Made by a program: the position numbers and the translations under genes. Below the pieces are notes generated by a model. The model worked only from the letters and a program-made list of their open reading frames with translations. It did not search any database and had not been told where the DNA came from. Source: a virus. From it: DNA of 64,000 bases. The DNA lies in the IMG/VR virus record IMGVR_UViG_3300035492_000309, positions 1 to 64,000 of that record; one strand, given 5' to 3'. Shown here piece after piece: positions 980 through 64,000 of this stretch (within the stretch, counting starts at the first letter, position 1; the number at the start of each line of letters is the position of its first letter).

Positions 980-2377
980 ATGCCCGTTCCAACGATTCAG
1001 AACATCGACACCGTAGTCAGACCACCGGAAAACGAACCGGTCAAGATCCAACCCAAGACGTACGTTGGCGCCAGCGTCGATACCAAGGAAGTCCGTTTCG
1101 ATCAACTGACTACCTATATCGCCGGTCAGTCCTGGGACGTGGATTTCTTCTCTCTGGTCAAAGGACGAGACGACGATGCGCGCCCCTTCGAGTCTGACCT
1201 GCACCCGGTCTACCAGCAATACAAGCTGATCAAGGGTTTTGAACTTAAGGTCACAAGTCCCTTGCAGTCGTCACAAGACAGCACCACCAAGGACATGACG
1301 CTCAAAGGCTCTGCCAATGTCTACGGTGTTCTGATCCCCAAAGAGGGTGACGTCTTTCTGGCTGACATCGGCGATGGCCGCGAAGGGATGTTCCATGTGA
1401 CCTCGTCGAACAAGCTGTCGCATTACATGTCGGCAGTTTATGAGATCGAGTACAGTTTGATCAAGTTGTCTAATGAGACGGTTCGCAAAGAGTTGGTGTC
1501 AAAGACGGTTGAGACCGTGGTCTTCCACAAGAACTTCCTTGACACCGGTAACACGCCACTGCTCAGCGAAGAACACACCCAGCTCGTCAACAACATGACC
1601 GAGCACTATGCCAGGTTGATCCAGTTGTACTTCCATGATTTCTTCAGCCGTGAGCGTAAAACCCTACTGGTGCCGAATCAACCTCGGGTTACGTATGACC
1701 CGTTCTTGGTACGGTATGTGAAAACCATCCTGACCACGGACGACCATCCGCTCCTGCGACACATGGTGGAACTTAATGTACAGGGTGACCAGACCATGTA
1801 CGAGTTCACCCTATGGAACTGCCTGGAAACGATGGATCATGCATTGCTCTCCATGAGTGTGCACCAAGCAGGTCTGGTAGACGTCAGTAAGTTCTTCAAT
1901 CGTCGCCCAACCTTGAACAGCATTTACTATTCAGGTGTCGAGGCGGTGGTGTATCCAGACCTGACGCCAACTCATGTCGATGCCGGTTACAGTGGGTTTG
2001 TCGATCAAGAACTCCAAGACCTGGTTCGCGGTTGTGCGCGTTTCCGCGAACTCAATCGTCTGTTCAAACCGACCTTGGAACTGGACCCGACCTTCGAGGT
2101 CTATGAGTCCATCGCCCCCGAGCGTGCGCCTCAGATCAAACGTGTGACAGTGGATGACTATTACGTCCTCAGTCAAGCGTTCTATGAGCACACAGCGACG
2201 ACCAAGCTCAGCAAGCTTGAGACGCTAACCCTCGCTGCACTCAAGGGCGAGGCGATCGATATCCGTCTGTTGGATCTGCTCTGCACCCATGCCCCTCGTT
2301 GGGATAACGTCGAGCGGTTTTACTACTTCCCTATCCTGTTCACCCTGCTTCGGGTGTATCGTCGGAGAATCAAATGA
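980..2377 (+). CDS. hypothetical protein (465 aa)
   Basis: ATG 980 right after upstream stop; ATGA overlap with next gene at 2374-2377; long ORF with only short antisense shadows. Confidence 0.8.
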   Translation: MPVPTIQNIDTVVRPPENEPVKIQPKTYVGASVDTKEVRFDQLTTYIAGQSWDVDFFSLVKGRDDDARPFESDLHPVYQQYKLIKGFELKVTSPLQSSQDSTTKDMTLKGSANVYGVLIPKEGDVFLADIGDGREGMFHVTSSNKLSHYMSAVYEIEYSLIKLSNETVRKELVSKTVETVVFHKNFLDTGNTPLLSEEHTQLVNNMTEHYARLIQLYFHDFFSRERKTLLVPNQPRVTYDPFLVRYVKTILTTDDHPLLRHMVELNVQGDQTMYEFTLWNCLETMDHALLSMSVHQAGLVDVSKFFNRRPTLNSIYYSGVEAVVYPDLTPTHVDAGYSGFVDQELQDLVRGCARFRELNRLFKPTLELDPTFEVYESIAPERAPQIKRVTVDDYYVLSQAFYEHTATTKLSKLETLTLAALKGEAIDIRLLDLLCTHAPRWDNVERFYYFPILFTLLRVYRRRIK

Positions 2378-2949
2378 GTCGGAAATACGATGACCCCGCA
2401 GAAGTGCGTCGGCATATTTTCCACACCACGTACCTTTATGCGATCCCAGGCTACTACCGCTATTCGAAAGAATACAACGAGAAAGTTGGTCATCTGCACA
2501 CAGGTTCGAAAGAGCTCAATCAGCGCTATATGACCGAGTACGTCAATATTGGTGGCACCATCGCCGATATTCTCAAGCTCTACAAGCAAGGGGCTGACAT
2601 CAAATTCCAGAACCCCCGCGAAGACCTCGTTACCATTTACGAGGTGATCAGCGCACACCTGGGATTTTGGGCGGATTATGTCAACAACGATCCGAACGTC
2701 AAAGATGCACCCCTCGATTCCCTGTACCTGATGTCCGACTTTGCCCAGACCATCAAAGATCAGGTCGTCGGCTTCAAGCCAGATATCAAAGATGTCCCTG
2801 AACTGCGTCGGGTCTCCAGCCTGTTTGGTAACCTGCCGGGGGCTCATGAACTGTTCAACACATCGGCAGTGGGTGTGGACGTGCAGGAAACTTCACCGCT
2901 CATGGACCGCATTGAGCGGCTGCTGGCTGAGCGCAACAAGAGACACTAA
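2374..2949 (+). CDS. hypothetical protein (191 aa)
   Basis: Translationally coupled ATGA start; uninterrupted ORF. Confidence 0.75.
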   Translation: MSRKYDDPAEVRRHIFHTTYLYAIPGYYRYSKEYNEKVGHLHTGSKELNQRYMTEYVNIGGTIADILKLYKQGADIKFQNPREDLVTIYEVISAHLGFWADYVNNDPNVKDAPLDSLYLMSDFAQTIKDQVVGFKPDIKDVPELRRVSSLFGNLPGAHELFNTSAVGVDVQETSPLMDRIERLLAERNKRH

Positions 2950-2964
2950 ATCAAAAGGGTGCGT

Positions 2965-4332
2965 ATGGAATTCTCCCAAACAACCCTTGGAGCAGAACTT
3001 GAGCTGATCCAGCGTGAGGGCGTTGATTCATATTACGCTTATGACGCTGTATTTGTCACTGAGCGGGAAGAGATTCCCGCCTTGACTGTGATCAGTCGCG
3101 ACGTCATCCGTGATTACCGCAAGGCGATCACGGATGAGGTCTTACTCAAGGTTGCTGTCCAATGGGGTCAGTATCTTCATCGGGTTTTGCCATTTAAGGA
3201 AAACCTTAAGCTTACGCTCACTCGTCGGACCCTCTCACACTCAGGTGTGGAGGTGACCGACAGTGTATTGGAGCAGACATATCTCGTACGCCTGCCCCTG
3301 GAGTCTGAAACCGGGATGCTCGCCGACAGTCCCGAGACCTCTAGCGAGTATGCCTCAGACCTGACTGGCATAAGGATCGTTCAGGTTCAGCTTCAAGAGG
3401 AGGCATTTGACCAAATACGCACCGAGATTGTCGGTGGGGTGTTTCGCGACAGTCGGCCTTACGATGTCCTCCTTTCCCTACTCATGAACTCGATGCGCAA
3501 CATGGACATCGATCAAGAGAACGCGATTCGAGGGATCACTGCGGTCGAACCGAACAATCAAGTCAAACGCAGTAACATAGTTCTGCCGCACGGCATCCCG
3601 CTGGTGCAGGTCGCCGATAAGCTACAGACGCAATATGGCGGCATTTACAGCACTGGGATCGGGTGTTACCTGCAAAAGGACATGTGGTATATCTGGCCTC
3701 TGTATAACTACAAACGCTATGATGAGGCTGAACGCACGGCACTGTTCATCCTGGCGCCTTCTAAGCGTTACCGCGGCATTGAGTATACGTACCGGGTTCA
3801 GGATAAGCATTTTGTCGCCTTGATCACCGGTGGTGTCAATCGTCTCGATCCGTCTGAGACCCGACTGCTCAATGAAGGTAATGGAACGCGTTTCGTCGAC
3901 AGCAGCACGATGATGCAAGGGTTTTTTGAGGTCTCTGGCAATAAAGCCGTGGCAAAAAGAACTAACAATGCAAATGAGTACGAGGCAATCCAACGCAAAG
4001 GCACTAGCATGTCCAGGGTTTCTGAGAACATGGCTCAGTCCAATGCGTTTCATGAAGCCAGTCGCTTGGCCGAACGAAATGGCGCCTACTTTGTCATGAA
4101 CTGGGAGAACAGTGATCCTGATCTGATCATTCCAGGCCTTCAGTGCGAGGTAGGGTTTATCGTCAATGGAGAGCCTGCGTTTGTCAATGGTGTAGTGGTC
4201 CACGCCCATGCGTACTCGGCGTTAGCGGGTACCGGGTTGCATCAGAAAGCTCATCAGACCACTACAGAAGTCGTGGTCATGGTCGATCGCCTAGCCCCAG
4301 GCTACCAAGCCTTCCTAGACGAACAGAGTTAA
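2965..4332 (+). CDS. hypothetical protein (about 455 aa)
   Basis: ORF opens at GTG 2959; ATG 2965 has AAGGG 6 nt upstream; long ORF. Confidence 0.8.
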   Translation: MEFSQTTLGAELELIQREGVDSYYAYDAVFVTEREEIPALTVISRDVIRDYRKAITDEVLLKVAVQWGQYLHRVLPFKENLKLTLTRRTLSHSGVEVTDSVLEQTYLVRLPLESETGMLADSPETSSEYASDLTGIRIVQVQLQEEAFDQIRTEIVGGVFRDSRPYDVLLSLLMNSMRNMDIDQENAIRGITAVEPNNQVKRSNIVLPHGIPLVQVADKLQTQYGGIYSTGIGCYLQKDMWYIWPLYNYKRYDEAERTALFILAPSKRYRGIEYTYRVQDKHFVALITGGVNRLDPSETRLLNEGNGTRFVDSSTMMQGFFEVSGNKAVAKRTNNANEYEAIQRKGTSMSRVSENMAQSNAFHEASRLAERNGAYFVMNWENSDPDLIIPGLQCEVGFIVNGEPAFVNGVVVHAHAYSALAGTGLHQKAHQTTTEVVVMVDRLAPGYQAFLDEQS

Positions 4333-4380
4333 TTTCAACCCTACATTATAGAACTGAACCACAACCTGAGGTCCACAGCC

Positions 4381-5223
4381 ATGTATGAACATCATACGCT
4401 GGGGAGGATAAAGGTCCGGGCAGGAGAAATACTTACCTTTACATACGACGAATCCATCCCCGAAAAGAAACGTCATATCACAGTGGTGGCCCTTGCTGAC
4501 ATCGATCTCAGTGATGAGATGGCCACCTTCTGTGAGGGCGTTAATCGATCCTCACGCGATATATTCACTGAAGAAGCCTTGCCCGGCTTCGTTCAGTACC
4601 TGACAGAGAAACGCCTGCTGCACATCGGCAATGAGGTGAAAGTTCACTTCGGTACCATGCGCCGTCCGGCTGCTCGCTTGATGGATGAATATCGCTTCAA
4701 GCTCAACCCAGAGTCCTTCTGGGAGGCTAAACTGCTTCACCGTTATGAGTCGAACTCGTTTACGGTGTTCAATCATCAGAACCATTTACTGACTGTGATG
4801 GCGGGTATTGATAGCCCGTTCGTTGCACTGGCCAGTATCATTGATCTACAAGGAGAAGTATTGGGTACGGCTCGGTTATCCGTGATATCGGATCACCGTC
4901 ATACCCTCATCGATGATAACGACATCGAAAGGCTTCGACTGGCCTTGCAGGCCGATATCTCATTGCACGTCGATGAGATCGCTGTGCTGGTAACTGAAAT
5001 CGAGATTATTTCCAATCCTGATTTTGGCATCAATGCATTCTCGCGTCACTTAGCACCACCTTCTTCTAACCCCATTTCATCCACACATGACACAGGGAAA
5101 CTCGATGAACACGTCCACGCTATCTCGGAAGCCACGCCAGCCCTCGCGCACCAGCGATCTGAGCAGCCTCGGGGAGCTGATGAGCCTCAATGGGATCAAG
5201 CCGGCACCGCAGCCACAGCCTGA
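4381..5223 (+). CDS. hypothetical protein (280 aa)
   Basis: ATG with GAGG 9 nt upstream; low-complexity C-terminal tail overlaps the next ORF out of frame. Confidence 0.7.
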   Translation: MYEHHTLGRIKVRAGEILTFTYDESIPEKKRHITVVALADIDLSDEMATFCEGVNRSSRDIFTEEALPGFVQYLTEKRLLHIGNEVKVHFGTMRRPAARLMDEYRFKLNPESFWEAKLLHRYESNSFTVFNHQNHLLTVMAGIDSPFVALASIIDLQGEVLGTARLSVISDHRHTLIDDNDIERLRLALQADISLHVDEIAVLVTEIEIISNPDFGINAFSRHLAPPSSNPISSTHDTGKLDEHVHAISEATPALAHQRSEQPRGADEPQWDQAGTAATA

Positions 5224-5841: not shown

Positions 5842-6564
5842 CTGATCGTTGTACAGTGCTGTAATCTCAGCCTGGGTCAGTTCTCGGTCGAATCGTGAGA
5901 CATCACGCTGGTAACCATTGGAGGCTTCTTCATTATGTCCGACACCCATTCTCATCTGACCTGCCGGGACAGTGAGCGTGATCGAAAATGTACTCGATAG
6001 CACACCGTTGACGTATATTCTCAATCGTCCAGCAGTGTAGGTGAACGTCACCATCGACCATTGGTTCATCGCCAGAGCGGTGGCCGCAACTTGAGATCCT
6101 CCAAGACTCTGCGCGTACAGATAAGGGCGGCCTGGAAACACCCCGGTCGCACCGAGTTTTAGAGCAAAATAAGCTTGGCCATCTGCGTGCGTCAACAGAT
6201 GACTGTATGAGGCGATACTGACTGGGTAATACCAAAGGTTGATTGTCCAAGGCCCGCTACCTAAGGCAATGCTGGGTGTGGTCGCATAGCCACCACTGAC
6301 CAGCCTCAGGGCGAGTTTCCCCGCAATGGATTGAAAGCTTGCGCCAGCAGATAAAGCCACTGATGTCATGGTGATGTAATCGGCCCTGACACCATCAAGC
6401 CCCCACCAGTTAAGTAGACCGTTGGACACAACCAAGCGTTTGTAAAAGGTTCTCCACGTCCCACTTACTTTGACCGAGCCTCGAACCACTTCTTTCCATG
6501 ATGAAAGGACCTTGATTCGTAAGACAACATTGCGCCAGATCCCTGACACCTTAGTTTTGAACAT
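5836..6564 (-). CDS. LamG / concanavalin-A-like lectin domain protein
   Basis: C-terminal pattern ...WSMVTFTYTAGRLRIYVNGVL...GYQRDVSRFDRELTQAEITALYND is typical of Laminin_G_3 domains. N-terminus has KVSG(I/T)WR repeats. Lone minus-strand gene. Confidence 0.6.
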   Translation of the reverse strand: MFKTKVSGIWRNVVLRIKVLSSWKEVVRGSVKVSGTWRTFYKRLVVSNGLLNWWGLDGVRADYITMTSVALSAGASFQSIAGKLALRLVSGGYATTPSIALGSGPWTINLWYYPVSIASYSHLLTHADGQAYFALKLGATGVFPGRPYLYAQSLGGSQVAATALAMNQWSMVTFTYTAGRLRIYVNGVLSSTFSITLTVPAGQMRMGVGHNEEASNGYQRDVSRFDRELTQAEITALYNDQL

Positions 6565-6661
6565 GGGACAGCCCTTACAGAAAATTATGTCATAGGATTT
6601 GGCTGTAAAAACAAACCCCCTCTCTCAATACTGTGATCATACCCTAGTGAGGCTGTAACGC

Positions 6662-7210
6662 ATGTCTATCACCAACCGTGTAATCAAGTTCGAAAGCCGC
6701 GCTGCATTGGACCTAGCGTTCCTTGACGGCAAATTGCATGCCGATGAAATCTTCCATACTGAGCGTGACAACCGTTACTGGAAGCTCGATATCACCGGTC
6801 GTGGCTTCGTTGAAACCAAGGGCCATGAAGAAACCCACATTCTTATTTGGTGGATGAACAACTGGGCGCTGATGGGTTCGCTACACATCCAGGAAGCGGC
6901 TGATCGTGGTGAAGGTAACTTCCCGGTACTGCCTGGACATCTGAAGATGGCACTGCGTCAGGCAGAAAACACCCAAGTGTATTTCGGCCAGCTGATTCCA
7001 CCGGTTACGCTGAGTGCGATCGTCGATACCGAACTGCTCACGGACGTGGAAGGCGAAGACACACTCACGGCCATCCTCAGTAATGGTTACTTCGGTATTC
7101 CCTTTGAGATCACCCATTACGACACGGTCAAGAAGTACGCGGGCATCGTCACCACCCCAGAGCTGAAAGTTCCGGACCTGTGCGCCCTGCGCGAACAACT
7201 GAAGGAATGA
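6662..7210 (+). CDS. hypothetical protein (182 aa)
   Basis: ATG start, clean ORF, no motif recognised. Confidence 0.7.
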   Translation: MSITNRVIKFESRAALDLAFLDGKLHADEIFHTERDNRYWKLDITGRGFVETKGHEETHILIWWMNNWALMGSLHIQEAADRGEGNFPVLPGHLKMALRQAENTQVYFGQLIPPVTLSAIVDTELLTDVEGEDTLTAILSNGYFGIPFEITHYDTVKKYAGIVTTPELKVPDLCALREQLKE

Positions 7211-7335
7211 ACCATGGTCGAACAGGTCGTTGACACGGCACTGATGTTTTCACAGGAAGGTTGGCTGATGGCCTACTTCGGCTTTATCGGTGGTTCGTTA
7301 TTGGGTTATTGGGCAGGTACAGCCGGGGGTTAGAG

Positions 7336-54415: not shown

Positions 54416-54445
54416 CCTATCCACTGCTATTTGGAGCAGACACCC

Positions 54446-55105
54446 ATGCAGTATTCATTCATCATCGACCACACCGATTTCGAAGAAATCCGTCTGAACA
54501 CTACTGAAGTCTTCGAAAACCTCTACATCTCTCGTCAGCCATCAGTTGAAGAAGAGGTGGGCTATGAGATCAAAGGTGATACCCTGATCATGAAGTACGA
54601 GCAGAACGAAGACGGACGGATCATCCTTGACAGCGCCAAGAAGTTCAATGGCCTGGCGACGCTACTTCCAGCTATCTTCGGTGCAGTCATGCATCTGCAC
54701 AAGCTCAAGAAGCTCAAGGTTTGTGACCACGAGGTTGATGTCGAAGTATTCATCAATAAACCCAACGGCATCTACCTGAACGAGCGCGCCGCTGACGGTG
54801 ATGTCATCCGACATGAGCTCGGCGGGATGATTTATCGCCGGCGAGATGCGCTCTACTGCCAGATCAACGAGATGAAAGTGTTCAAGCGCATGATCCAGAT
54901 GCGTAAGAATGGCATCGGCAGTTTTATTGATCCGGAGATTCTGGTTCGGTTTGAGGCCAAAGGCAAGTTTGTCTATCAGCCTGCTGGACATTGCTATTAC
55001 GATCCGGTCGTGGCCCATTCGTTCAACCCGTCTATCACTGACAAAATGTGGCTAGACAAACGCGATGAACTGAACCATTTTCTCGATACGCTTTCTCAGT
55101 TCTAA
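54446..55105 (+). CDS. hypothetical protein
   Basis: ORF opens at TTG 54431; ATG 54446 follows GGAG. Confidence 0.6.
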   Translation: MQYSFIIDHTDFEEIRLNTTEVFENLYISRQPSVEEEVGYEIKGDTLIMKYEQNEDGRIILDSAKKFNGLATLLPAIFGAVMHLHKLKKLKVCDHEVDVEVFINKPNGIYLNERAADGDVIRHELGGMIYRRRDALYCQINEMKVFKRMIQMRKNGIGSFIDPEILVRFEAKGKFVYQPAGHCYYDPVVAHSFNPSITDKMWLDKRDELNHFLDTLSQF

Positions 55106-55116
55106 GGAGAACATTC

Positions 55117-55410
55117 ATGATCAACATCTATCACGAAGAAGAAGGTCTGGTCTTCAAGAAGATTCAGGCTGATACCGGTATCAGCTACCTTAGCATTCCG
55201 GTCGAAGAAGTCGACGATGCCCGTGATCTGCTGGTGCGTCACGGAACACCGCAGAAGGGCTGTGGCTACTATCCTGTAGGTCTGCTGTTCGAAGAACGCA
55301 CGGTACGCCGCAAGGTAGCCAGCCGTCTGTCCAAACGTCCACCCAATGAAACCTGGGTCAACCGCACGCGCCGGCTGCTGGAGACTCATGGCCTTCAACC
55401 CATCCATTGA
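55117..55410 (+). CDS. hypothetical protein
   Basis: AAGGAG RBS. Confidence 0.6.
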   Translation: MINIYHEEEGLVFKKIQADTGISYLSIPVEEVDDARDLLVRHGTPQKGCGYYPVGLLFEERTVRRKVASRLSKRPPNETWVNRTRRLLETHGLQPIH

Positions 55411-55457
55411 TCCAACATTGCGTCACCCAACACTCGATAACCACCAGGAGCAGTAGC

Positions 55458-55778
55458 ATGCCGTATAAAGCCGTAGCCAAAACCATCATCGATGCCGTCG
55501 AGTACCGCGTCAAACTCAACATCGCCAAAGGCAACTTTGCACCGATCGTCCTGACCATCTCTGAAGCTGAACTCAAAACCCAAATGGGTCTTGAGCGTCT
55601 GAAGACTGTCACCCGTAAGCGTCTGGTCGCCAGCCTGGCTGCTGCCGATTACATCGTGACGGACGAAGGCGATGGCCTGCTGATCGAAGTCGATGTTGCT
55701 GGCCGTGATACTCAGTTCGACAGCCTGGCTGCGCTGATCGAATCGACCCAGCCTGTCGGTGAGCCGTTTCGAGGCTAA
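55458..55778 (+). CDS. hypothetical protein
   Basis: ATG 55458 in ORF 55407. Confidence 0.55.
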   Translation: MPYKAVAKTIIDAVEYRVKLNIAKGNFAPIVLTISEAELKTQMGLERLKTVTRKRLVASLAAADYIVTDEGDGLLIEVDVAGRDTQFDSLAALIESTQPVGEPFRG

Positions 55779-55833: not shown

Positions 55834-58800
55834 TTATTCGGTCAGAGATTGATCGTTGTCAAAGACATCGATTGGCAACTGTTGCTTGAGCTGTTCTATG
55901 AAGACTTCAGCATCAGCCAAGGTCGCATCGGGATTCTCCACCAGACTTTCCAGAGAGGCTTCCAGATCATCAGGAGCCTGCACCCCGAGGATAGCTTCCA
56001 CTTGGGATTTCGACCACTGCATGATGTCCTTGGAACGGGTCGAGATATTGCCTTCGGTTCCAGTGTCTAGGAAAATCTCCCAAACATGACAGCGGTGCTT
56101 CTGCCCGATACGGTCAACTCGAGCGATCGTCTGCGTCCGCTCGTAGTCACGGAACGGGGCGTTAGTGAAGATCTCGGTGTTGGCCATGGTCAACGGCACA
56201 GCAGTCGACAGGCTTTTGAAGGTAGCGATCAGCGGGTTGGCATCCGGGTCTTGTTCGAACTTCTTGACGATGTTGGTCAAGTCCTTGTTGGTGTCGCCAT
56301 AGACCAGCAAGGGTTTGTACCCGGCGTTACTCAGCAAGCCATCCAGCTCTTTCACAACTTCAACGTAGCTGGTGAAGATCACTGTCTTACTGGCCGCATT
56401 GTCGATGATGGTATCGAGCGGCATGTTTGGCAACATGTCCAGATGGCACTGAATACGCATCCGACCCAACACCTGGGACAAAGCCTCACCCATGACCTTA
56501 AGATCAACGTACTTGATGATTGCCCGGACATTCAAGAACGGCTTACGGAAACGCTCAGGCAGGGACGGTATAATCTTCTTCAGTTCGTACCGGTTGCAGA
56601 ACATCACCAGGTCTTTCATGGTGACTGGGTCGTACCCTTTACGGATCGTGGCAATGGCACGGTTGTATTCTGCAAACTCAGTCTTGGCGGCGTTGTTACT
56701 GCCAAGTGATTGAGCATGTAAATCCATGCACTGGGCATAGAGCGCTTCGTATTCCTTCATGCCTTTGCGGTAGAACTCCAGACGCTCTTCGATGAACTTG
56801 CTCATCTTGTCGCGCACACTGGTCAGAGTGTAGTCCTGACCATTTTTGATTGTGATCTTCTCCTCGTGATAGTCCACGCCAGGGGTTTCGATGTCCTGTT
56901 TCGGGACTTTAAAGGACACGATCCCGATGCGATTGGCCAGAATCTCCAGCGCACGCTTGGCCTCTTTACCGAACATCTTGCGGAAGGAGGCTTCGACATC
57001 CGGCGTGAAATCGCGACAGACCGTCTTGAGCAAGGTGATGGCTTCCGAACCCATGGCCTTGAACGGTGTGCCGGAGGCATGAACAACATCGCGTGCTTTA
57101 ACGACCTGAACCAGCTCGACAAGATAATTGGTACGGGCCGACTGTTCGTTGAAGTTGTGCGATTCATCGATCGCCACGAAGACCTGACCAAAGTTTCCTT
57201 TGTTGGCTTTGGCGAACGCCAGGAACTTCTCCAGGTAGTCATAATGGACAATGTAGTGCTTCTTACCGGCCACCGGATCAAGACCGCTCAGGCTGTGCCA
57301 GAACTCAGGGGTGTTCTTAAACAACATGTTAATGGTCTTGACCCAGACATCGAGTACCGCGTTCTTCGGTACCACCAAGATATTGGTGTCGGCTTTGAGC
57401 ACATGTCCTAAGGCGTAATTGGTAATGGTGTTGTGAGTCACGATGAAGTCATCGGTGACATACAGGTGTTTCGGATGATCCACCATGATGCACTGGGCTT
57501 CTTCCTGACCAACCAACTTGATCGACTTAACGCGAAGCTTCAGACCTTCCGCATACTGGCCATCGTCCTTACAGCGAGCTTTCTTGCGCCCCATACGGAA
57601 CAGTTCAGATTGCTTCTTGTAGCGGATGTTGACGTTATATGCCACCTTACCTTCGCGAACTTCGCCGTTGTACGTATATCGAGTACGTTTCTCGGCGATA
57701 CGTGCGATACCGCCAAGACTACGGACCAGGTACTGCACATCGAGAGCAAGCTGCTCACTGGTCGTACTGAACGACACTACGGCATGGTCATTGATGGTCC
57801 CATCTGTGTCCAGCAGGCCCTGGAGAACGCTCAGGCGCTGCTTACGAGAACCGTTCTTATAGATCTCTGGGACGAACTTCTCAAACGAGTATTTCCCGAA
57901 CAGGCCAAGGCCACGAATGATGTCGGTCAGAGCATTCTTCTTATGACGCTCGTCGGTGATGATGTAATCATACTCGCTAACGTGCTTCATGGAGGTGAAT
58001 TCAGGAAGGACTTTACGAACTTCGTCAAGAACGTCCTCATCTGCGCAGCTGAAACGCACATTGTAGCGAAGACCGCCGTCGCCGATCAGGGCACCGATCA
58101 GGTAAGGGTCGGCTGGAAGGTCGATGTCCGGACCATCCTCGGCTTCAATCAGTGGGATATACAGACGTTGGCGATTCTTCTCGAGAAGACGTTTCATCTC
58201 GAGAGTGTCGCGAGTAGCCCAACGATGAGGGTCTCGAACGGTCCCGTCGAAAGACTCCCACAGATGTTCTCCGCAGGCGCGGGTCTTTCGACCATCCCAG
58301 AATTCTACTTCATAGATGTCCTTGACACCCTGAGGGAATACACCGACAACAGACACAACAGAACCATCGGGAGCAACGATCTGGGAACCGACGTGTATAT
58401 CGCCCATCGTGGCCCAACCACCTGGTACCTTGATTTTAGCATCGAGAGGCTGTGCCTTGCCGCCACCTGCAGCGACATCCATCAACATTCCCTGAAGGGA
58501 ATATTCGAACGTGGTCCGATCATACTCACGTAAAAAATTAAGTTGATGGGGAAATAGTGTGATGTTAAGGTCTGCCAACTGCTTGTAATCAAGACGTGGT
58601 GCAAACCCCGTCACGCCGATATTGCGTAGCCATGTGCTGTGAGTCAATTCCTCAGCCACGCGAGTGAGCAACCTCCGTCCGACATAGGTACGCCGCGATT
58701 GGATCAGTTGTTCAATGATGTACAGTACTTCGATGGCATAGAACTTAGGAAACTTCACCGATGATCTGGACACCGATGTGAACAGATTGTTGTTGATTTT

Positions 58801-58926
58801 GCTGGTTTTCCAGTGGTTGTAAATATCTCTGGAAAAACGCAAACCGGGGATTCCGTTGACTATAATGTGAGAATCCGTCTCTTTGACAGAGACCAATCCC
58901 AGCATGCGCGAAAAACTGGCGTACAT
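55834..58926 (-). CDS. SNF2/DEAD-like helicase precursor interrupted by an intein
   Basis: Motif I is split: AAGGGK|intein|TITNYAL. Also DESH (VFVAIDESHNF), helicase C domain and motif VI ARVDRIGQK. Single 1030-aa ORF. Confidence 0.9.
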   Translation of the reverse strand: MYASFSRMLGLVSVKETDSHIIVNGIPGLRFSRDIYNHWKTSKINNNLFTSVSRSSVKFPKFYAIEVLYIIEQLIQSRRTYVGRRLLTRVAEELTHSTWLRNIGVTGFAPRLDYKQLADLNITLFPHQLNFLREYDRTTFEYSLQGMLMDVAAGGGKAQPLDAKIKVPGGWATMGDIHVGSQIVAPDGSVVSVVGVFPQGVKDIYEVEFWDGRKTRACGEHLWESFDGTVRDPHRWATRDTLEMKRLLEKNRQRLYIPLIEAEDGPDIDLPADPYLIGALIGDGGLRYNVRFSCADEDVLDEVRKVLPEFTSMKHVSEYDYIITDERHKKNALTDIIRGLGLFGKYSFEKFVPEIYKNGSRKQRLSVLQGLLDTDGTINDHAVVSFSTTSEQLALDVQYLVRSLGGIARIAEKRTRYTYNGEVREGKVAYNVNIRYKKQSELFRMGRKKARCKDDGQYAEGLKLRVKSIKLVGQEEAQCIMVDHPKHLYVTDDFIVTHNTITNYALGHVLKADTNILVVPKNAVLDVWVKTINMLFKNTPEFWHSLSGLDPVAGKKHYIVHYDYLEKFLAFAKANKGNFGQVFVAIDESHNFNEQSARTNYLVELVQVVKARDVVHASGTPFKAMGSEAITLLKTVCRDFTPDVEASFRKMFGKEAKRALEILANRIGIVSFKVPKQDIETPGVDYHEEKITIKNGQDYTLTSVRDKMSKFIEERLEFYRKGMKEYEALYAQCMDLHAQSLGSNNAAKTEFAEYNRAIATIRKGYDPVTMKDLVMFCNRYELKKIIPSLPERFRKPFLNVRAIIKYVDLKVMGEALSQVLGRMRIQCHLDMLPNMPLDTIIDNAASKTVIFTSYVEVVKELDGLLSNAGYKPLLVYGDTNKDLTNIVKKFEQDPDANPLIATFKSLSTAVPLTMANTEIFTNAPFRDYERTQTIARVDRIGQKHRCHVWEIFLDTGTEGNISTRSKDIMQWSKSQVEAILGVQAPDDLEASLESLVENPDATLADAEVFIEQLKQQLPIDVFDNDQSLTE
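57430..58455 (-). mobile_element. intein (342 aa, aa 158-499) with LAGLIDADG homing endonuclease; class 3 signature
   Basis: Starts AQPLDAKIKV.. and ends ..FIVTHN|T. LAGLIDADG motifs YLIGALIGDGGL and VLQGLLDTDGTI. Block B GEHLW (Trp B:12), block F AQCIMVD (Cys at F:4), block G THN (Thr G:5). Confidence 0.85.
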
Positions 58927-58973: not shown

Positions 58974-60362
58974 ATGACGCATAAAACCACCGCTCAACCG
59001 ACCGCCGTAGAACTGCTCCATTCGGCGCAGAACTATCGCACCAGCCTGGAATCGCTGATGGCAATCGGGAAGGTGATGTTGGCACAACCATCGTTGGAAG
59101 ACGATGCCGTCAACGCCTACCAAGTGCTGGCCGAAGGTGTTCTGGAAGAAGCCGACCACCAAGGCGATCTGGCTGCGGTCGAAGGCGTGGAAGAAGGTCA
59201 GGCTCGTGTCGAGCTGATCATGCAGGATGTCCTGACACCTCGACTGACTGAAGTCGAAGACATCGAACAAGCACTGCTCGAGAAAGCCGAATCCCAGCAA
59301 CCGGTACCGTTCACCACCCGTGACGTCGAAACCTCTGTGTCGCAAGAAGCTCTCTTCTCGGCAGAAGTACTGGGGCTGTATCGTGAAAATATCGGTACCG
59401 TGCGCCAAGTACTGTCCATGGAAGGGATGAATGCCGACCTGGCCCGCCCCATGGTCATGTCGGTGGTGCAGCGCGCCAAGGACAGCCTCCACTGGCTGGG
59501 CGTCTCCATGGAAGCACTGGAAGAGACCCAGGTGCTCGGTGACATGTCCGAGGCGGTCGAGCGTATCGAGGCACTGGTGACTAAGGCGCATGAACAAGCG
59601 CTGGAACATGCCGAAGGTGTCCGCAATGAAGCGGAGAACCTCGGCAGCGACGGCAGCGATCCCATGGGTGACCTGATCGAGAAACATCGGGGTGAAAACG
59701 CCACTGGCGCGGTTCTTGATGAGGAAACCAAAGTCACCACCATCGAGCACGAAGTCGATAAGTCCGAACCTGATGAAACTGATGCGGTCGTCGAAGGTGG
59801 CGAGGAGGCTTCGGCTGACCTCGACCTCGAAGATGCTGCTGACGGTGAGGTATCGGATACAACCGGTGACGAGACCTCGACTGACGTTGACATCGAAGAC
59901 GATACCACGATCGCCGATGTGGAAATCGATGCTGCTGAAAGCGAAGTCGATGCAGTCAACAGCGCTGCTGACAGCGAAGCTGAAGAAAACACCGATGAAA
60001 CGCAAGAAGAAGAAGAAAACACCGAGAGCGATGACGATGATGACGAAGAGGAAGAAACTGCTTCGACAGAGTCATTGGAACCGGTGGTCTTCGAAAGCCT
60101 GGCGACTCGTACCGAAGACAAGGATATCATCAAAGACATCCTCAACTCGCTGATGAGTTTCCTGCATACTCACGACCTGCTGACTGAAGTTGGTTATGAC
60201 GCACTGCTCAATGGTTTGGGTGATGAGTTTGTGTTCGACGACAGCATGGTAGCGCCACGCGCCGCTGACGTCTTGGCACGCCACTACCACACCTGGAGTG
60301 AAGCGTCGGTGCGTGACGGTGAAGCCAACGTACGTGCTATGGGTGTATTGCTCGGCCTGTAA
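58974..60362 (+). CDS. highly acidic protein (462 aa)
   Basis: AGAGGG RBS. Long D/E-rich tract (..EEEENTESDDDDDEEEETAS..). Divergent from the SNF2 gene with a 47-nt spacer. Confidence 0.75.
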   Translation: MTHKTTAQPTAVELLHSAQNYRTSLESLMAIGKVMLAQPSLEDDAVNAYQVLAEGVLEEADHQGDLAAVEGVEEGQARVELIMQDVLTPRLTEVEDIEQALLEKAESQQPVPFTTRDVETSVSQEALFSAEVLGLYRENIGTVRQVLSMEGMNADLARPMVMSVVQRAKDSLHWLGVSMEALEETQVLGDMSEAVERIEALVTKAHEQALEHAEGVRNEAENLGSDGSDPMGDLIEKHRGENATGAVLDEETKVTTIEHEVDKSEPDETDAVVEGGEEASADLDLEDAADGEVSDTTGDETSTDVDIEDDTTIADVEIDAAESEVDAVNSAADSEAEENTDETQEEEENTESDDDDDEEEETASTESLEPVVFESLATRTEDKDIIKDILNSLMSFLHTHDLLTEVGYDALLNGLGDEFVFDDSMVAPRAADVLARHYHTWSEASVRDGEANVRAMGVLLGL

Positions 60363-61311: not shown

Positions 61312-61869
61312 ATGGCCTGTAAAACCGATAACTTCAAGTTCGATCCCGATAAGACAGCGTTAGAAAACCTCTTTGCGCTGGTCTATCGGACTAACCGGGT
61401 GCGTCTTAGTCAGGACTTGATTGAGGTGGAAGCACCTCGCACAATCGAGGAAGATGAGCACGGCGACAACACAGTCATTCTAGTCAAGGCCAGGGCAGAC
61501 GGTCCACTGGACGGCCAGCAAGACCTTTACTATGCTCGTGCTGACATCAACACCCATTATCCGACCTTTCTGATTGATGCCCGTGAAACAGAAGGGATCA
61601 ACGATAAAGATGCCCTACTGACTTACCTCGATGGCAAGTTCAATCTGGTCGATGGTGAATTCGATGTCGACATCAGTGAACCCTTCGAGTCGTTGGTCGC
61701 ACACACAAGCATTGACATCTATGCCAAAGACGCATCGTACATCTACATCGGCCGTAAAACGATTCACATCTTCTGGTCGGGTGGTCTCAGACGAGTCACT
61801 GACGAAGGCAGAATACGTATCACCGATGAAGGGGCGGTACGCGTAATCGAAGATGAGACGTTGGACTGA
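61312..61869 (+). CDS. hypothetical protein
   Basis: Clean ORF; converges on a minus-strand fibre gene across hairpin 61873-61904. Confidence 0.65.
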   Translation: MACKTDNFKFDPDKTALENLFALVYRTNRVRLSQDLIEVEAPRTIEEDEHGDNTVILVKARADGPLDGQQDLYYARADINTHYPTFLIDARETEGINDKDALLTYLDGKFNLVDGEFDVDISEPFESLVAHTSIDIYAKDASYIYIGRKTIHIFWSGGLRRVTDEGRIRITDEGAVRVIEDETLD

Positions 61870-61915: not shown

Positions 61916-64000
61916 TTAGACGGCAGGGGTACCTTCCAGCTCAGCCGCAGCGGAATCGAAGGCGCTGGTCAGTTCGATCACCAGTGCTTCGAGGTCGCTG
62001 GCTACCGTTGCAGTAGCAGTGTTTTGCTCGGCGAGCTTGACAGCCACCTGACCGGCATCTGCGAACTTGCCAGCACCAGCAACGCCGGTGGCATCTTCGA
62101 GATCAGCAGCAGCCGAGGTCAGCTCCGCTTGGGTTTTGCCGTTCAGCTTCAGGGAGTCTGCAGCTTGTTCGGTTTTACCCAGCTTGCCGTCGATGGCCGT
62201 GTTGACCGGAACCAGAGACGCGTCGATAGCACTCTGGACCTGCGCCGCGGTCTGCTTCTCGCCGATCTGAGTCATCAAGGTATTGATGACATCCGGATCG
62301 TTGTTCAGCGCAGCCGCCAGCTCATTGATGGTATCCAGCGCTTCAGGTGCAGTACCTACCAGATCAGCGACAGCCGCGTCGATTGCAGCTTTTGCAGCGA
62401 GGGCAGTGACGTACTTGACGTCGTCAGTGCCTGCAATGACATCAGCCCCGGTAGCCTTGGCAGCCACGAATGCATTGAAACTGTCCTGCAGTGCTTGCAG
62501 ATCAGCCGCATCACCGGCCGCAGTGATACCAGCCTGCAACTGGGCAATCAGCGTGCTGAGAGCTACCTGGGTAGCAGTTTCCCCTTCACCCTGGGTGACG
62601 GTGTTGGCATCGATATTATCGGTGCGACCTACCTTGGTGCCTTCCAGTACCTGGACAGCATTGTCAATCTTGATGTCCAGCGCCTGATCGGCCGCTTCAC
62701 GAGCACCTGCTTCAGCTGCAACCTGACCTTCCAAGGTCGACACTGCGGCAGCCAGGTTACCATTGACGGTGCCGAACGCAGCATCCAGAGTAACCTGTGC
62801 GCCATCGATGGTGACAGTATTGGTGTCGATGTTGTCGCCTTTCTCGACAACATTGGACATGTCCACGCCAGCCTGAGCAGCAGCGATGATCTGTTCGGCA
62901 GTCTGGCCGCCGAGCAACGCCGAGTCAACGGCCTGCGCAGTGGCGTCCAACTTGCTGTCAGCAGTCTCTTGAGCAGCAGTGATGGCGGCGTTCACCGGCA
63001 CCAGTGCAGCTTCGATAGCAGCCAGTACGTCAGCAGCCGATTGCTTCTCACCGATCTGGGTCATCAAGGTATTGATGACGTCAGGGTCGTTGTTCAGGGC
63101 CGCGGCCAGTTCGTTGATGGTGTTGAGTGCTTCCGGCGCGGTACCGACCAGTTCAGCAACGGCATGGTCGATAGCTGTTTTGGCAGCCAGGGACGTGACG
63201 TATTTGACGTCGTCAGTGCCGGCGATGACTTCGGCACCGGTGGCTTTGGCAGCGGCATCCAGCTTCTGGGCAAGATTCTGAATGATGTTGGAGATGGTAT
63301 CGCCTTGAGCATCAGCCTGCTGCTGCATGCCTTCGACACGGCTCTTCAAACCACTGACTTCACCCGTCAGGCGTGCATCGGTAGCATCCGTCTTGGTCTC
63401 AAAGTCTTCGACCACTTCTTTGAGGGTCTTGACCGAGGTGGTAACGGTGATGTAGTACGGAACATCCGGGCTCGCACCAGCGGTTTGCAGGGCGGTGGCG
63501 ATCGCCATGCCTTCGACTGCGCCGACAGTGGTAGGTACGAAGACGCCGTCGAGGTCAGAGTCTTCTTCGATGACCAGACCGCCTCCGGCGGTAGACATCG
63601 TAGCACGCAGGGTGGCAGTGCCGTCATTAGTGGCAGATGCCACGTAGGTGGACTTCGGCGTGCCAGCATTGACCGGGTTCAGGGACAGATCGGTCACACC
63701 GGTCTGCATGAAGTCGGAGCCTTCGCCCACTGCAGCTTGCAGGTCAGCGATAGCAGCAGCGTTGGCATCAACCTGACCCTGCAGGGCGGCGTCAGCGGCA
63801 GCGAACTCACCACGCAGAGCGGTGGCTTCAGTGGTCAGCGCGTCAGCAGCAGCGGCAGTCGCAGCGGCCTGGGCAGCATCGGCTTTGGCCTGAGCACCTT
63901 CCGGAGTTTCCTTGGTGCCGATCGCAGTCATCATCGAGTTGATGACATCCGGATCGTTGTTCAGGGCGGCGGCGATTTCCTGAATGGTGTTCAGGGTCTC
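61916..64000 (-). CDS. Ala-rich repetitive fibre protein, N-terminus outside window
   Basis: Stop at 61916-61918. Repeated GA(D/E)VIAGTDDVKYVT.LAAK.AID.AVA.LVGTAPEAL(D/N)TINELAAALNNDPDVINTLMTQIGEKQ. The same motif (..NDPDVINSMM) continues upstream of the tracked Met at 63934 to the window edge. Confidence 0.8.
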   Translation of the reverse strand, partial: ETLNTIQEIAAALNNDPDVINSMMTAIGTKETPEGAQAKADAAQAAATAAAADALTTEATALRGEFAAADAALQGQVDANAAAIADLQAAVGEGSDFMQTGVTDLSLNPVNAGTPKSTYVASATNDGTATLRATMSTAGGGLVIEEDSDLDGVFVPTTVGAVEGMAIATALQTAGASPDVPYYITVTTSVKTLKEVVEDFETKTDATDARLTGEVSGLKSRVEGMQQQADAQGDTISNIIQNLAQKLDAAAKATGAEVIAGTDDVKYVTSLAAKTAIDHAVAELVGTAPEALNTINELAAALNNDPDVINTLMTQIGEKQSAADVLAAIEAALVPVNAAITAAQETADSKLDATAQAVDSALLGGQTAEQIIAAAQAGVDMSNVVEKGDNIDTNTVTIDGAQVTLDAAFGTVNGNLAAAVSTLEGQVAAEAGAREAADQALDIKIDNAVQVLEGTKVGRTDNIDANTVTQGEGETATQVALSTLIAQLQAGITAAGDAADLQALQDSFNAFVAAKATGADVIAGTDDVKYVTALAAKAAIDAAVADLVGTAPEALDTINELAAALNNDPDVINTLMTQIGEKQTAAQVQSAIDASLVPVNTAIDGKLGKTEQAADSLKLNGKTQAELTSAAADLEDATGVAGAGKFADAGQVAVKLAEQNTATATVASDLEALVIELTSAFDSAAAELEGTPAV
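62252..62465 (-). repeat. fibre gene repeat copy A (about 214 nt)
   Basis: Imperfect direct repeat of 63041-63254, 789 nt (263 codons) apart. Confidence 0.85.
63041..63254 (-). repeat. fibre gene repeat copy B
   Basis: See 62252-62465. A third partial copy starts about 63930 and runs off the window. Confidence 0.85.

Follow-up and report, generated by a model that had tools for sequence, protein, structure and literature searches.

In the viral sequence IMGVR_UViG_3300035492_000309 (IMG/VR; positions 1 to 64,000 of the record, these 64,000 nucleotides being called the window), a minus-strand gene for a jumbo-phage SNF2-like superfamily 2 (SF2) helicase very probably contains a full-length class 3 intein. 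The intein carries a nested LAGLIDADG endonuclease with two motifs and is inserted between the Lys and the Thr of the helicase Walker A motif. The precursor open reading frame (ORF; 55834..58926) encodes 1030 aa followed by a stop codon; all parts of this gene given below are on the minus strand. The N-extein (aa 1-157; 58456..58926) ends with the first half of Walker A (AAGGGK). It is followed by the 342-aa intein (protein aa 158-499; 57430..58455), in which a HINT splicing domain is split by a LAGLIDADG homing endonuclease domain, and by the C-extein (aa 500-1030; 55837..57429), which begins with TITNYALGH and contains DESH, SGTP and RVDRIGQ. The insert is in frame with the helicase and contains zero stops. 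The product reads …MDVAAGGGK|AQPLDAKIKV…FIVTHN|TITNYALGHV…, so that the Lys and the Thr of Walker A flank the insert. An earlier sequence-only reading, made by a model from the letters and the ORFs, had placed the insert at these same residues and nucleotides, and both junction strings were present as it claimed.

Insert boundaries and class 3 signature

The insert was compared with an intein-less ortholog, the 706-aa helicase QTH80505.1 of Pseudomonas phage pPa_SNUABM_DT01 (DT01), which shares 78% of 687 aligned residues with the window protein. Both proteins start with MYASFSRMLG, and their alignment left a single clean gap of 342 residues, exactly at K157/T500. The DT01 helicase is uninterrupted at GGGK|TITNYALGH and reads GGGKTITNYALGH, which is the same as the window product after excision. 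The boundaries are unambiguous to the residue because the DT01 allele gaps exactly at K|T, and they cannot slide, since K and T on the flanks are unlike the terminal A and N of the insert. At the nucleotide level, DT01 was the sole close relative in the phage collection (77% identity, match in two pieces). The exact window precursor protein was matched only on SRA-derived (Logan) contigs. The insert was then removed in silico. The Pfam ResIII score, 20.0 bits before and thus below the cut-off of 22.5, was 31.7 bits afterwards, with the match now crossing the junction. The proposal that excision restores helicase motif I was thus borne out by the DT01 gap and by the ResIII score, and DT01 provides the intein-less allele that the sequence-only reading had suggested looking for in related phages.

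Class 3 inteins are defined by a first residue other than Cys, Ser or Thr and by Trp at B:12, Cys at F:4 and Thr at G:5, the WCT signature (PMC2807308, PMC3196547, PMC5050341). Their +1 residue is usually Thr or Ser, with one known Cys+1 exception (PMC2807308). Splicing blocks A, B, F and G were present in order in the window intein, with His B:10, a C-terminal His-Asn and Thr+1 (intein residues are numbered from its first residue, extein residues as in the precursor). Block A (AQPLDAKIKVPGG; 58417..58455) begins with the non-nucleophilic Ala1, in the same register as ALALD of MsmDnaB1. Block B (GRKTRACGEHLWES; 58252..58293) contains Cys61 (B:7), His64 (B:10) and Trp66 (B:12) in GEHLW. Cys322 (F:4), the predicted class 3 nucleophile, lies in AQCIMVD of block F (EAQCIMVDHPKHLYVT; 57454..57501). 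Block G (DFIVTHN|T; 57427..57450) contains Thr340 (G:5), His341 and Asn342, and is followed by Thr+1, the residue that serves the helicase as its Walker A Thr. The full class 3 signature was therefore found (Ala1, Trp66, Cys322, Thr340 and Thr500 as the +1 residue).

The register of the blocks was checked against MsmDnaB1 and MchDnaB1. HLW, QCIMVD and THN of the window intein are opposite HQW, RCVEVD and THN, and Cys322 is opposite Msm Cys118. For MsmDnaB1 the register was fixed from residue 1, since the published cloning primer encodes GK-ALALD where the window has GK-AQPLD. Alignment to MP-Be, the class 3 prototype from mycobacteriophage Bethlehem, was in register as well, and no shift of the block assignments was seen. 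The Ala start, Trp B:12, Cys F:4, Thr G:5, the THN|T junction and the usual intein blocks all stand where the sequence-only reading had put them, in register with three proven class 3 inteins.

A family alignment of 113 sequences (the AQPL subfamily) was made from the window intein and 112 full-length relatives taken from a 5.8-billion-protein database. His B:10, Cys F:4, Ile F:5, Thr G:5 and the terminal His and Asn were each found in 113/113 sequences, Trp B:12 in 111 and Ala1 in 106; the AQPL motif was present in more than 100. The extein flanks were conserved too, with Lys at -1 in 102/113, Gly at -2 in 106/113 and either Thr (99) or Ser (14) at +1.

A phmmer search of the PDB gave MsmDnaB1 (6bs8, E 1.1e-10) and MchDnaB1 (6rix and 6riy, E 2.7e-10 and 7e-10) as the top three matches, all to the HINT halves; PI-SceI came next, through its endonuclease part. 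The engineered gp41-1_WCT (E 2e-5) matched better than native gp41-1 (E 1.4e-3). The intein matched the MP-Be prototype in blastp (E 9e-28) and Pfam LAGLIDADG_3 (E 1.4e-11). NCBIfam matches were only to the intein portions of models of intein-containing DnaB, RecA, GyrA, RNR and RFC. An AlphaFold2 model built with a 77-sequence alignment reached a predicted local distance difference test score (pLDDT) of 93.7 and a predicted template modelling score (pTM) of 0.92. Foldseek against the PDB placed on top the endonuclease-containing full-length inteins TliVMA, PI-SceI, PhoVMA and PI-PfuI (E 1e-17 to 1e-11; PI-SceI and TliVMA matches E 1e-17 to 1e-16). The best mini-intein folds were those of the class 3 Mch and Msm DnaB1 (TM score 0.80-0.84, normalised to the target), and I-DmoI matched the endonuclease core (E about 3e-5). 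In the model, the insert is thus predicted to have the HINT fold and also the LAGLIDADG fold of I-DmoI and of the endonuclease domains of PI-SceI and PI-PfuI. Ranked by similarity rather than placed in a tree, the closest characterised relatives were class 3 inteins, whether by PDB sequence matches (top three), by mini-intein folds (top matches) or by MP-Be. Class 3 inteins have been described as monophyletic.

Host helicase, endonuclease and distribution

The spliced product would be a 688-aa protein with AAGGGKT, DESH (57157-57168), SGTP (57064-57075) and RVDRIGQ (56101-56121), the last three in the C-extein. It has an SF2 core (Walker A, DESH, SGTP and a C-terminal lobe; Pfam ResIII 1.7e-7, Helicase_C 1.6e-5) and matched phrog_62, DNA helicase, in PHROGs (4e-98). 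Its PDB sequence matches were 15/15 to SNF2-family proteins, through the C-lobe only; they included Fun30 (7.6e-7), CHD1L, Sso Rad54-like, Fft3, ISWI and SWR1. Weak NCBIfam matches to DrmD and ZorD were also obtained, and orthologs are annotated as SNF2 or DEAD-like. The label 'SNF2-type' proposed from the letters held in part: the C-lobe matches and the DESH, SGTP and RVDRIGQ motifs fit it, but Pfam SNF2_N was not matched by the spliced helicase. For this reason 'SNF2-like SF2 helicase' appears to be the safe wording for the extein, with moderate support from its sequence. Among the 204 jumbo-phage records with an ortholog are those of 201phi2-1, Phabio, Ea35-70/RAY, RP12 and PhiPA3. In agreement with this distribution, phiKZ-like ('group 1') jumbo phages have been described as having Snf2/Swi2 helicases (PMC7824862).

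Both LAGLIDADG motifs that had been claimed were found. Motif 1 (block C, PYLIGALIGDGG; 58072..58107) contains LIGALIGDGG with catalytic Asp126, and motif 2 (block E, LSVLQGLLDTDGT; 57796..57834) contains LQGLLDTDG with Asp216 and Asp218. In the family alignment, the motif 1 residues G125, D126 and G127 were conserved in 113, 108 and 111 of the 113 sequences, and the motif 2 residues D216, D218 and G219 in 113, 110 and 113. Lys193 was found in 110/113, so that D126, K193, D216 and D218 all stand at near-invariant columns. The catalytic Asp residues of both motifs are intact in the window intein, and the domain is full length with respect to all relatives (100% coverage); endonuclease activity is plausible. 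The candidate homing substrate is the intein-less site of DT01 (…GGTGGCGGCAAA|ACCATCACCAAC…), which at the P-loop insertion point reads CTGATGGACGTGGCAGCCGGTGGCGGCAAA|ACCATCACCAACTACGCTCTTGGTCATTGC and is identical to the joined flanks of the window at 45/60 nt. The endonuclease would cut the P-loop-coding sequence of intein-less alleles when two phages co-infect a cell, and repair would copy the intein in. Such homing fits the finding, described below, that the intein interrupts orthologs only here and there and also occurs in unrelated genes for P-loop ATPases.

A tblastn search with the intein alone matched 857 phage records, of which 299 were mycobacteriophages; the others were mainly jumbo phages of Pseudomonas, Salmonella, Erwinia, Vibrio, Klebsiella and Aeromonas. 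The matches fell under features labelled as helicases, terminases and other proteins. Among metagenomic and database proteins, 516 matched the intein at E <= 1e-10, with PhoH, DnaB, AAA_30, RecA and ABC-type P-loop ATPases as exteins. With few exceptions, members of the family are inserted at the GK|T/S of a P-loop ATPase. No second copy of the intein better than E 1.4 was found in the window by tblastn.

Interruption of the helicase gene was surveyed in the best 60 of the 204 ortholog records. Most of these gave single-piece matches of ~2 kb and so are intein-less, DT01 and Xanthomonas phage LucasX included. Two-piece matches were obtained in seven phages, and only the PhiPA3-like clade and SL2 were interrupted. 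The two-piece orthologs of ~3 kb were those of phiHQ, PS119XW, HHBS36_1, BRkr, phiLBG22 and PA1C. In Pseudomonas phage SL2 (MF805716, 74235-77027) the two pieces extend over ~2.8 kb, which implies an insert of ~0.8 kb, smaller than the 1.03-kb intein of the window. This insert may be another intein or a reduced one, at the helicase P-loop site or elsewhere.

The orthologous host gene of PhiPA3 encodes gp233 (AEH03656.1, 'putative SNF2 domain helicase', HQ630627; 38% identity over 655-661 aa, E 5e-159). It is interrupted at the same point (GTGK|AQPLTS…VTHN|TYMTS) by an intein of the same family, with 345 aa, an AQPL start, a THN end and a LAGLIDADG domain; in the PhiPA3-type records retrieved, the insert carries no intein or class 3 annotation. 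The same interrupted gene is present in PA1C, PS119XW, phiHQ, BRkr, phiLBG22 and HHBS36_1. The PhiPA3 intein is only 45% identical to that of the window, which is below the inteins of a non-homologous helicase. Indeed, the closest inteins were those of LucasX LUCX_80 and of the RAD2/SF2 helicase of Salmonella phage SA002 (54.5% and 52% identical over the full length). With the window intein they have in common the AQPL…THN|T signature and a P-loop site (GKGK|T). Their host is the RNA polymerase-linked Rad25-like helicase of phiKZ-like phages, which has no detectable homology to the window extein (best E 0.12). This type of helicase was looked for in the window and was absent, and the ortholog of the window helicase in LucasX itself is without intein. 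Since intein similarity does not follow the host gene, the inteins appear to have moved between P-loop sites. This would fit the spread between P-loop-coding sites by a homing endonuclease that was proposed for class 3 inteins (PMC5050341, PMC3196547).

Relatives of the window gene are often mis-split or mislabelled owing to the intein, and its recognition counts for more in annotation than elsewhere. In SA002 (2058-4648) the helicase is split into two coding sequences around the start of the intein. Other intein-bearing genes are labelled 'terminase large subunit', 'RNA polymerase beta subunit', 'DarB-like antirestriction' or 'DOD-type homing endonuclease'.

Predicted splicing and rival explanations

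By analogy with MP-Be, with the class 3 mini-inteins of PMC5222942, with Msm and Mch DnaB1 and with the Deinococcus radiodurans Snf2 intein, we infer that the precursor splices and that it does so through an F:4 thioester (PMC2807308, PMC5222942, PMC6195587, PMC7664689; Snf2 intein as cited in PMC3196547). The 1030-aa precursor would be translated with a split ATP-binding loop and presumably have no ATPase activity. As residue 1 is Ala, Cys322 rather than residue 1 would attack the Lys157-Ala158 peptide bond, assisted by His64 and Trp66, to give a block F branched thioester. Transesterification would then move the N-extein to the hydroxyl of Thr500 (+1), giving a block G branched ester. Cyclisation of Asn499, with His498 assisting and Thr497 (G:5) packing the hairpin (precursor numbers of Asn342, His341 and Thr340), would release the intein. 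Finally, an O-to-N acyl shift would yield the 688-aa helicase with an intact AAGGGKT. The dual role of Thr500, as +1 residue and as Walker A Thr, has a parallel in the P-loop Ser of MsmDnaBi1, which likewise doubles as +1 residue (PMC6195587).

Several points weigh against this interpretation of the insert as a splicing and homing element. The literature search found no splicing experiment on the window protein or on any member of the AQPL subfamily. The activity of the endonuclease was deduced entirely from conserved motifs. The G + C content of the intein (52.6%) is close to that of the window (52.2%) and gives no compositional sign of recent arrival, the content at third codon positions being uninformative. 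The argument for mobility uses pairwise identities that differ only modestly (45-54%) rather than a formal phylogeny. Finally, the class 3 signature does not always go with splicing: the Arsp-FB24 intein clustered with class 3 inteins and yet is dead, though it is without Cys F:4 (PMC3196547), and grafting WCT onto gp41-1 gave no splicing class 3 intein, so that WCT alone is insufficient (PMC7664689).

These two precedents bear on a first alternative, in which the intein keeps its signature but splicing was lost or became conditional. The intein would then be decaying or regulatory and the helicase mostly an inactive precursor, its function being dispensable or provided in trans. In favour of conditional splicing, MsmDnaBi1 is reversibly blocked by oxidation via its catalytic Cys (PMC6195587), and the window intein has a second Cys (Cys61, B:7) beside the active-site His. 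We nevertheless consider this alternative unlikely. Every residue essential in MP-Be is present, and the Tyr that replaces its F330 is tolerated (PMC2807308). The Cys F:4 missing from Arsp-FB24 is invariant in the window family. An unspliced P-loop is expected to be selected against, since 204 jumbo-phage records conserve the host gene and the window ORF has no interruption; together with the identity to DT01 (78%), this supports selection for splicing.

Cys61 (58273-58275) was examined in the family alignment. Cys B:7 was present in 93/113 members, a Cys-Cys pair at B:6-B:7 in 59 and Cys F:2 in 50. Covariation of Cys B:6 with Cys F:2, which could have indicated a structural disulfide, was not significant in this alignment (Fisher p = 0.12). 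The conservation of Cys B:7 and its expected proximity to the catalytic Cys F:4 leave room for a speculative idea, in our judgement rather unlikely to be correct. Splicing might be gated by redox state through a reversible Cys61-Cys322 disulfide or through a metal site, and with it the activation of a conserved jumbo-phage helicase. If true, this would be a phage counterpart of the Cys48-Cys118 switch of MsmDnaBi1, made from a different residue; Cys48 aligns with an Ile in the window intein.

A route other than block F is very unlikely. Thr+1 could attack directly, as in class 2, or Cys61 could be the first nucleophile, a role to which its retention in most of the subfamily would lend some weight. 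However, up to 2011 the only genes known to contain class 2 inteins were KlbA genes, and absence of WCT is part of the definition of that class (PMC3196547, PMC2807308). Cys F:4 is found in 113/113 sequences, whereas Cys B:7 is swapped for S, G, T, D, E or N in 20/113, and a residue that can be replaced in this way fits an accessory role rather than that of an obligate nucleophile. Use of F:4 was also demonstrated for homologous class 3 inteins (PMC2807308, PMC5222942, PMC6195587).

A further alternative, that the insert is no intein but a LAGLIDADG endonuclease gene, free-standing or fused, or an artefact of annotation or frame, is refuted. An antisense ORF almost coincides with the insert and the helicase is annotated as two genes in some relatives (SA002), but the insert is in frame and stop-free, has HINT blocks A/B on one side and F/G with HN|T on the other, and is predicted to fold as HINT plus LAGLIDADG (pLDDT 93.7). 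The antisense ORF (57433..58533, plus strand, 366 aa) was rejected as a gene, being in phase with the sense codons and an artefact of codon usage. It is explained by the rarity of the sense codons TTA, CTA and TCA, of which the precursor gene has only 8 in 1031 codons. Further in-phase antisense ORFs at 56866-57411 and 56086-56709 have the same explanation and were not taken as genes.

Genomic context and comparison with known inteins

The preferred reading, a class 3 intein in a phage helicase, was set in its genomic context. A divergent ORF upstream of the helicase (58974-60362, plus strand) encodes a very acidic protein of 462 aa with a poly-Asp/Glu tract (…DDDDDEEEE…) and no PHROG match. 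The DT01 megablast match runs past the helicase gene to ~59334 and overlaps a DT01 'hypothetical protein', and the acidic ORF may be partly conserved in DT01. Downstream of the helicase (54431-55778, plus strand), the opposite strand has three small ORFs (of 224, 97 and 123 aa) without a PHROG match. At this place DT01 has a 371-aa gene on the same strand as its helicase (6164-7279) instead, so that synteny, judged from the two sequences, breaks directly after the helicase. Megablast with 24 kb of the window matched only DT01 (helicase and one neighbour gene), and no closely related sequenced phage was found in that collection. The phage context is confirmed by genes ~2.4 kb beyond the helicase start, for a virion structural protein (61312-61869; phrog_1037, 7e-11) and a tail-fibre-like protein (61916-63934, minus strand; phrog_1197, 2e-24).

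Publications of 2010-2011 already described class 3 inteins, their WCT signature and their preference for P-loops and helicases (SNF2 explicitly), and proposed that they came from phages. The window intein is not novel, as in the PhiPA3 genome record (HQ630627) the orthologous helicase is interrupted at the same site by an intein of this family. The rarity of a class 3 intein in a phage SNF2 gene, which the sequence-only reading had implied, did not hold: the family is in 857 phage records, and PhiPA3 and its relatives carry it at the same helicase site. The practical value is modest: the natural full-length class 3 inteins increase by one, whose LAGLIDADG endonuclease is apparently intact. 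Paired with the natural intein-less allele of DT01, which defines the homing site, it makes a convenient system for studying how class 3 inteins splice, or how they home when jumbo phages co-infect a cell. It is a further case of the known tendency of class 3 inteins to concentrate in the P-loops of phage helicases and ATPases and to move between non-homologous genes, and changes no concept.

The two class 3 examples given by the sequence-only reading, the MP-Be DnaB and D. radiodurans Snf2 inteins, are those named in the literature (PMC3196547, PMC2807308). MP-Be, the 'DnaB' intein of mycobacteriophage Bethlehem, has 341 aa against the 342 of the window intein and the same HINT-LAGLIDADG-HINT architecture, at 26-29% identity. 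In an end-to-end alignment (numbering of PMC2807308), its H65, W67, C320, T339 and N341 are opposite H64, W66, C322, T340 and N342, with HGW of MP-Be facing HLW in block B, and both have Thr+1. All residues essential in MP-Be (His B:10, Trp B:12, Cys F:4, Ile F:5 and Asn G:7) are in the window intein, and F330 is replaced by Tyr, a change (F330Y) that leaves MP-Be fully active (PMC2807308). MP-Be differs by Pro1 instead of Ala1, by Ser instead of Cys at B:7 and by an N-extein that ends with …SQDQ, where that of the window ends with GK.

The host of MP-Be is also different. The published flanks VSQDQ and TKNTF placed it at aa 141-481 of Bethlehem gp11, a 903-aa protein that is not an SF2 helicase. 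The gp11 gene (AY500153, 7260-9971) is annotated 'hypothetical protein'. The intein was sought in the DnaB-like gene region of Bethlehem and none was found, the DnaB-like gp62 (273 aa) being intein-free. Because the gp11 gene lies directly upstream of the portal gene and is not the DnaB-like gp62, gp11 is probably the large terminase, and the historical name 'MP-Be DnaB intein' is misleading.

The D. radiodurans Snf2 intein is also of class 3 and in a Snf2-family protein, and is likened here by its description only, as cited in PMC3196547. According to that citation, its block F branched intermediate was shown by experiment (Brace et al. 2010). MsmDnaB1 and MchDnaB1 (DnaBi1; PDB 6bs8, 6rix and 6riy) likewise occupy a P-loop GK|…|S/T site and start with Ala1 (ALALD against AQPLD), with WCT in register (PMC6195587, PMC7664689). 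Unlike the window intein, they are mini-inteins without endonuclease, have a bacterial DnaB as host and carry Asp at B:7. With Ser in MP-Be and Asp in Msm and Mch DnaB1 at this position, the Cys B:7 of the window intein, next to the catalytic centre, is the one feature outside the characterised class 3 examples.

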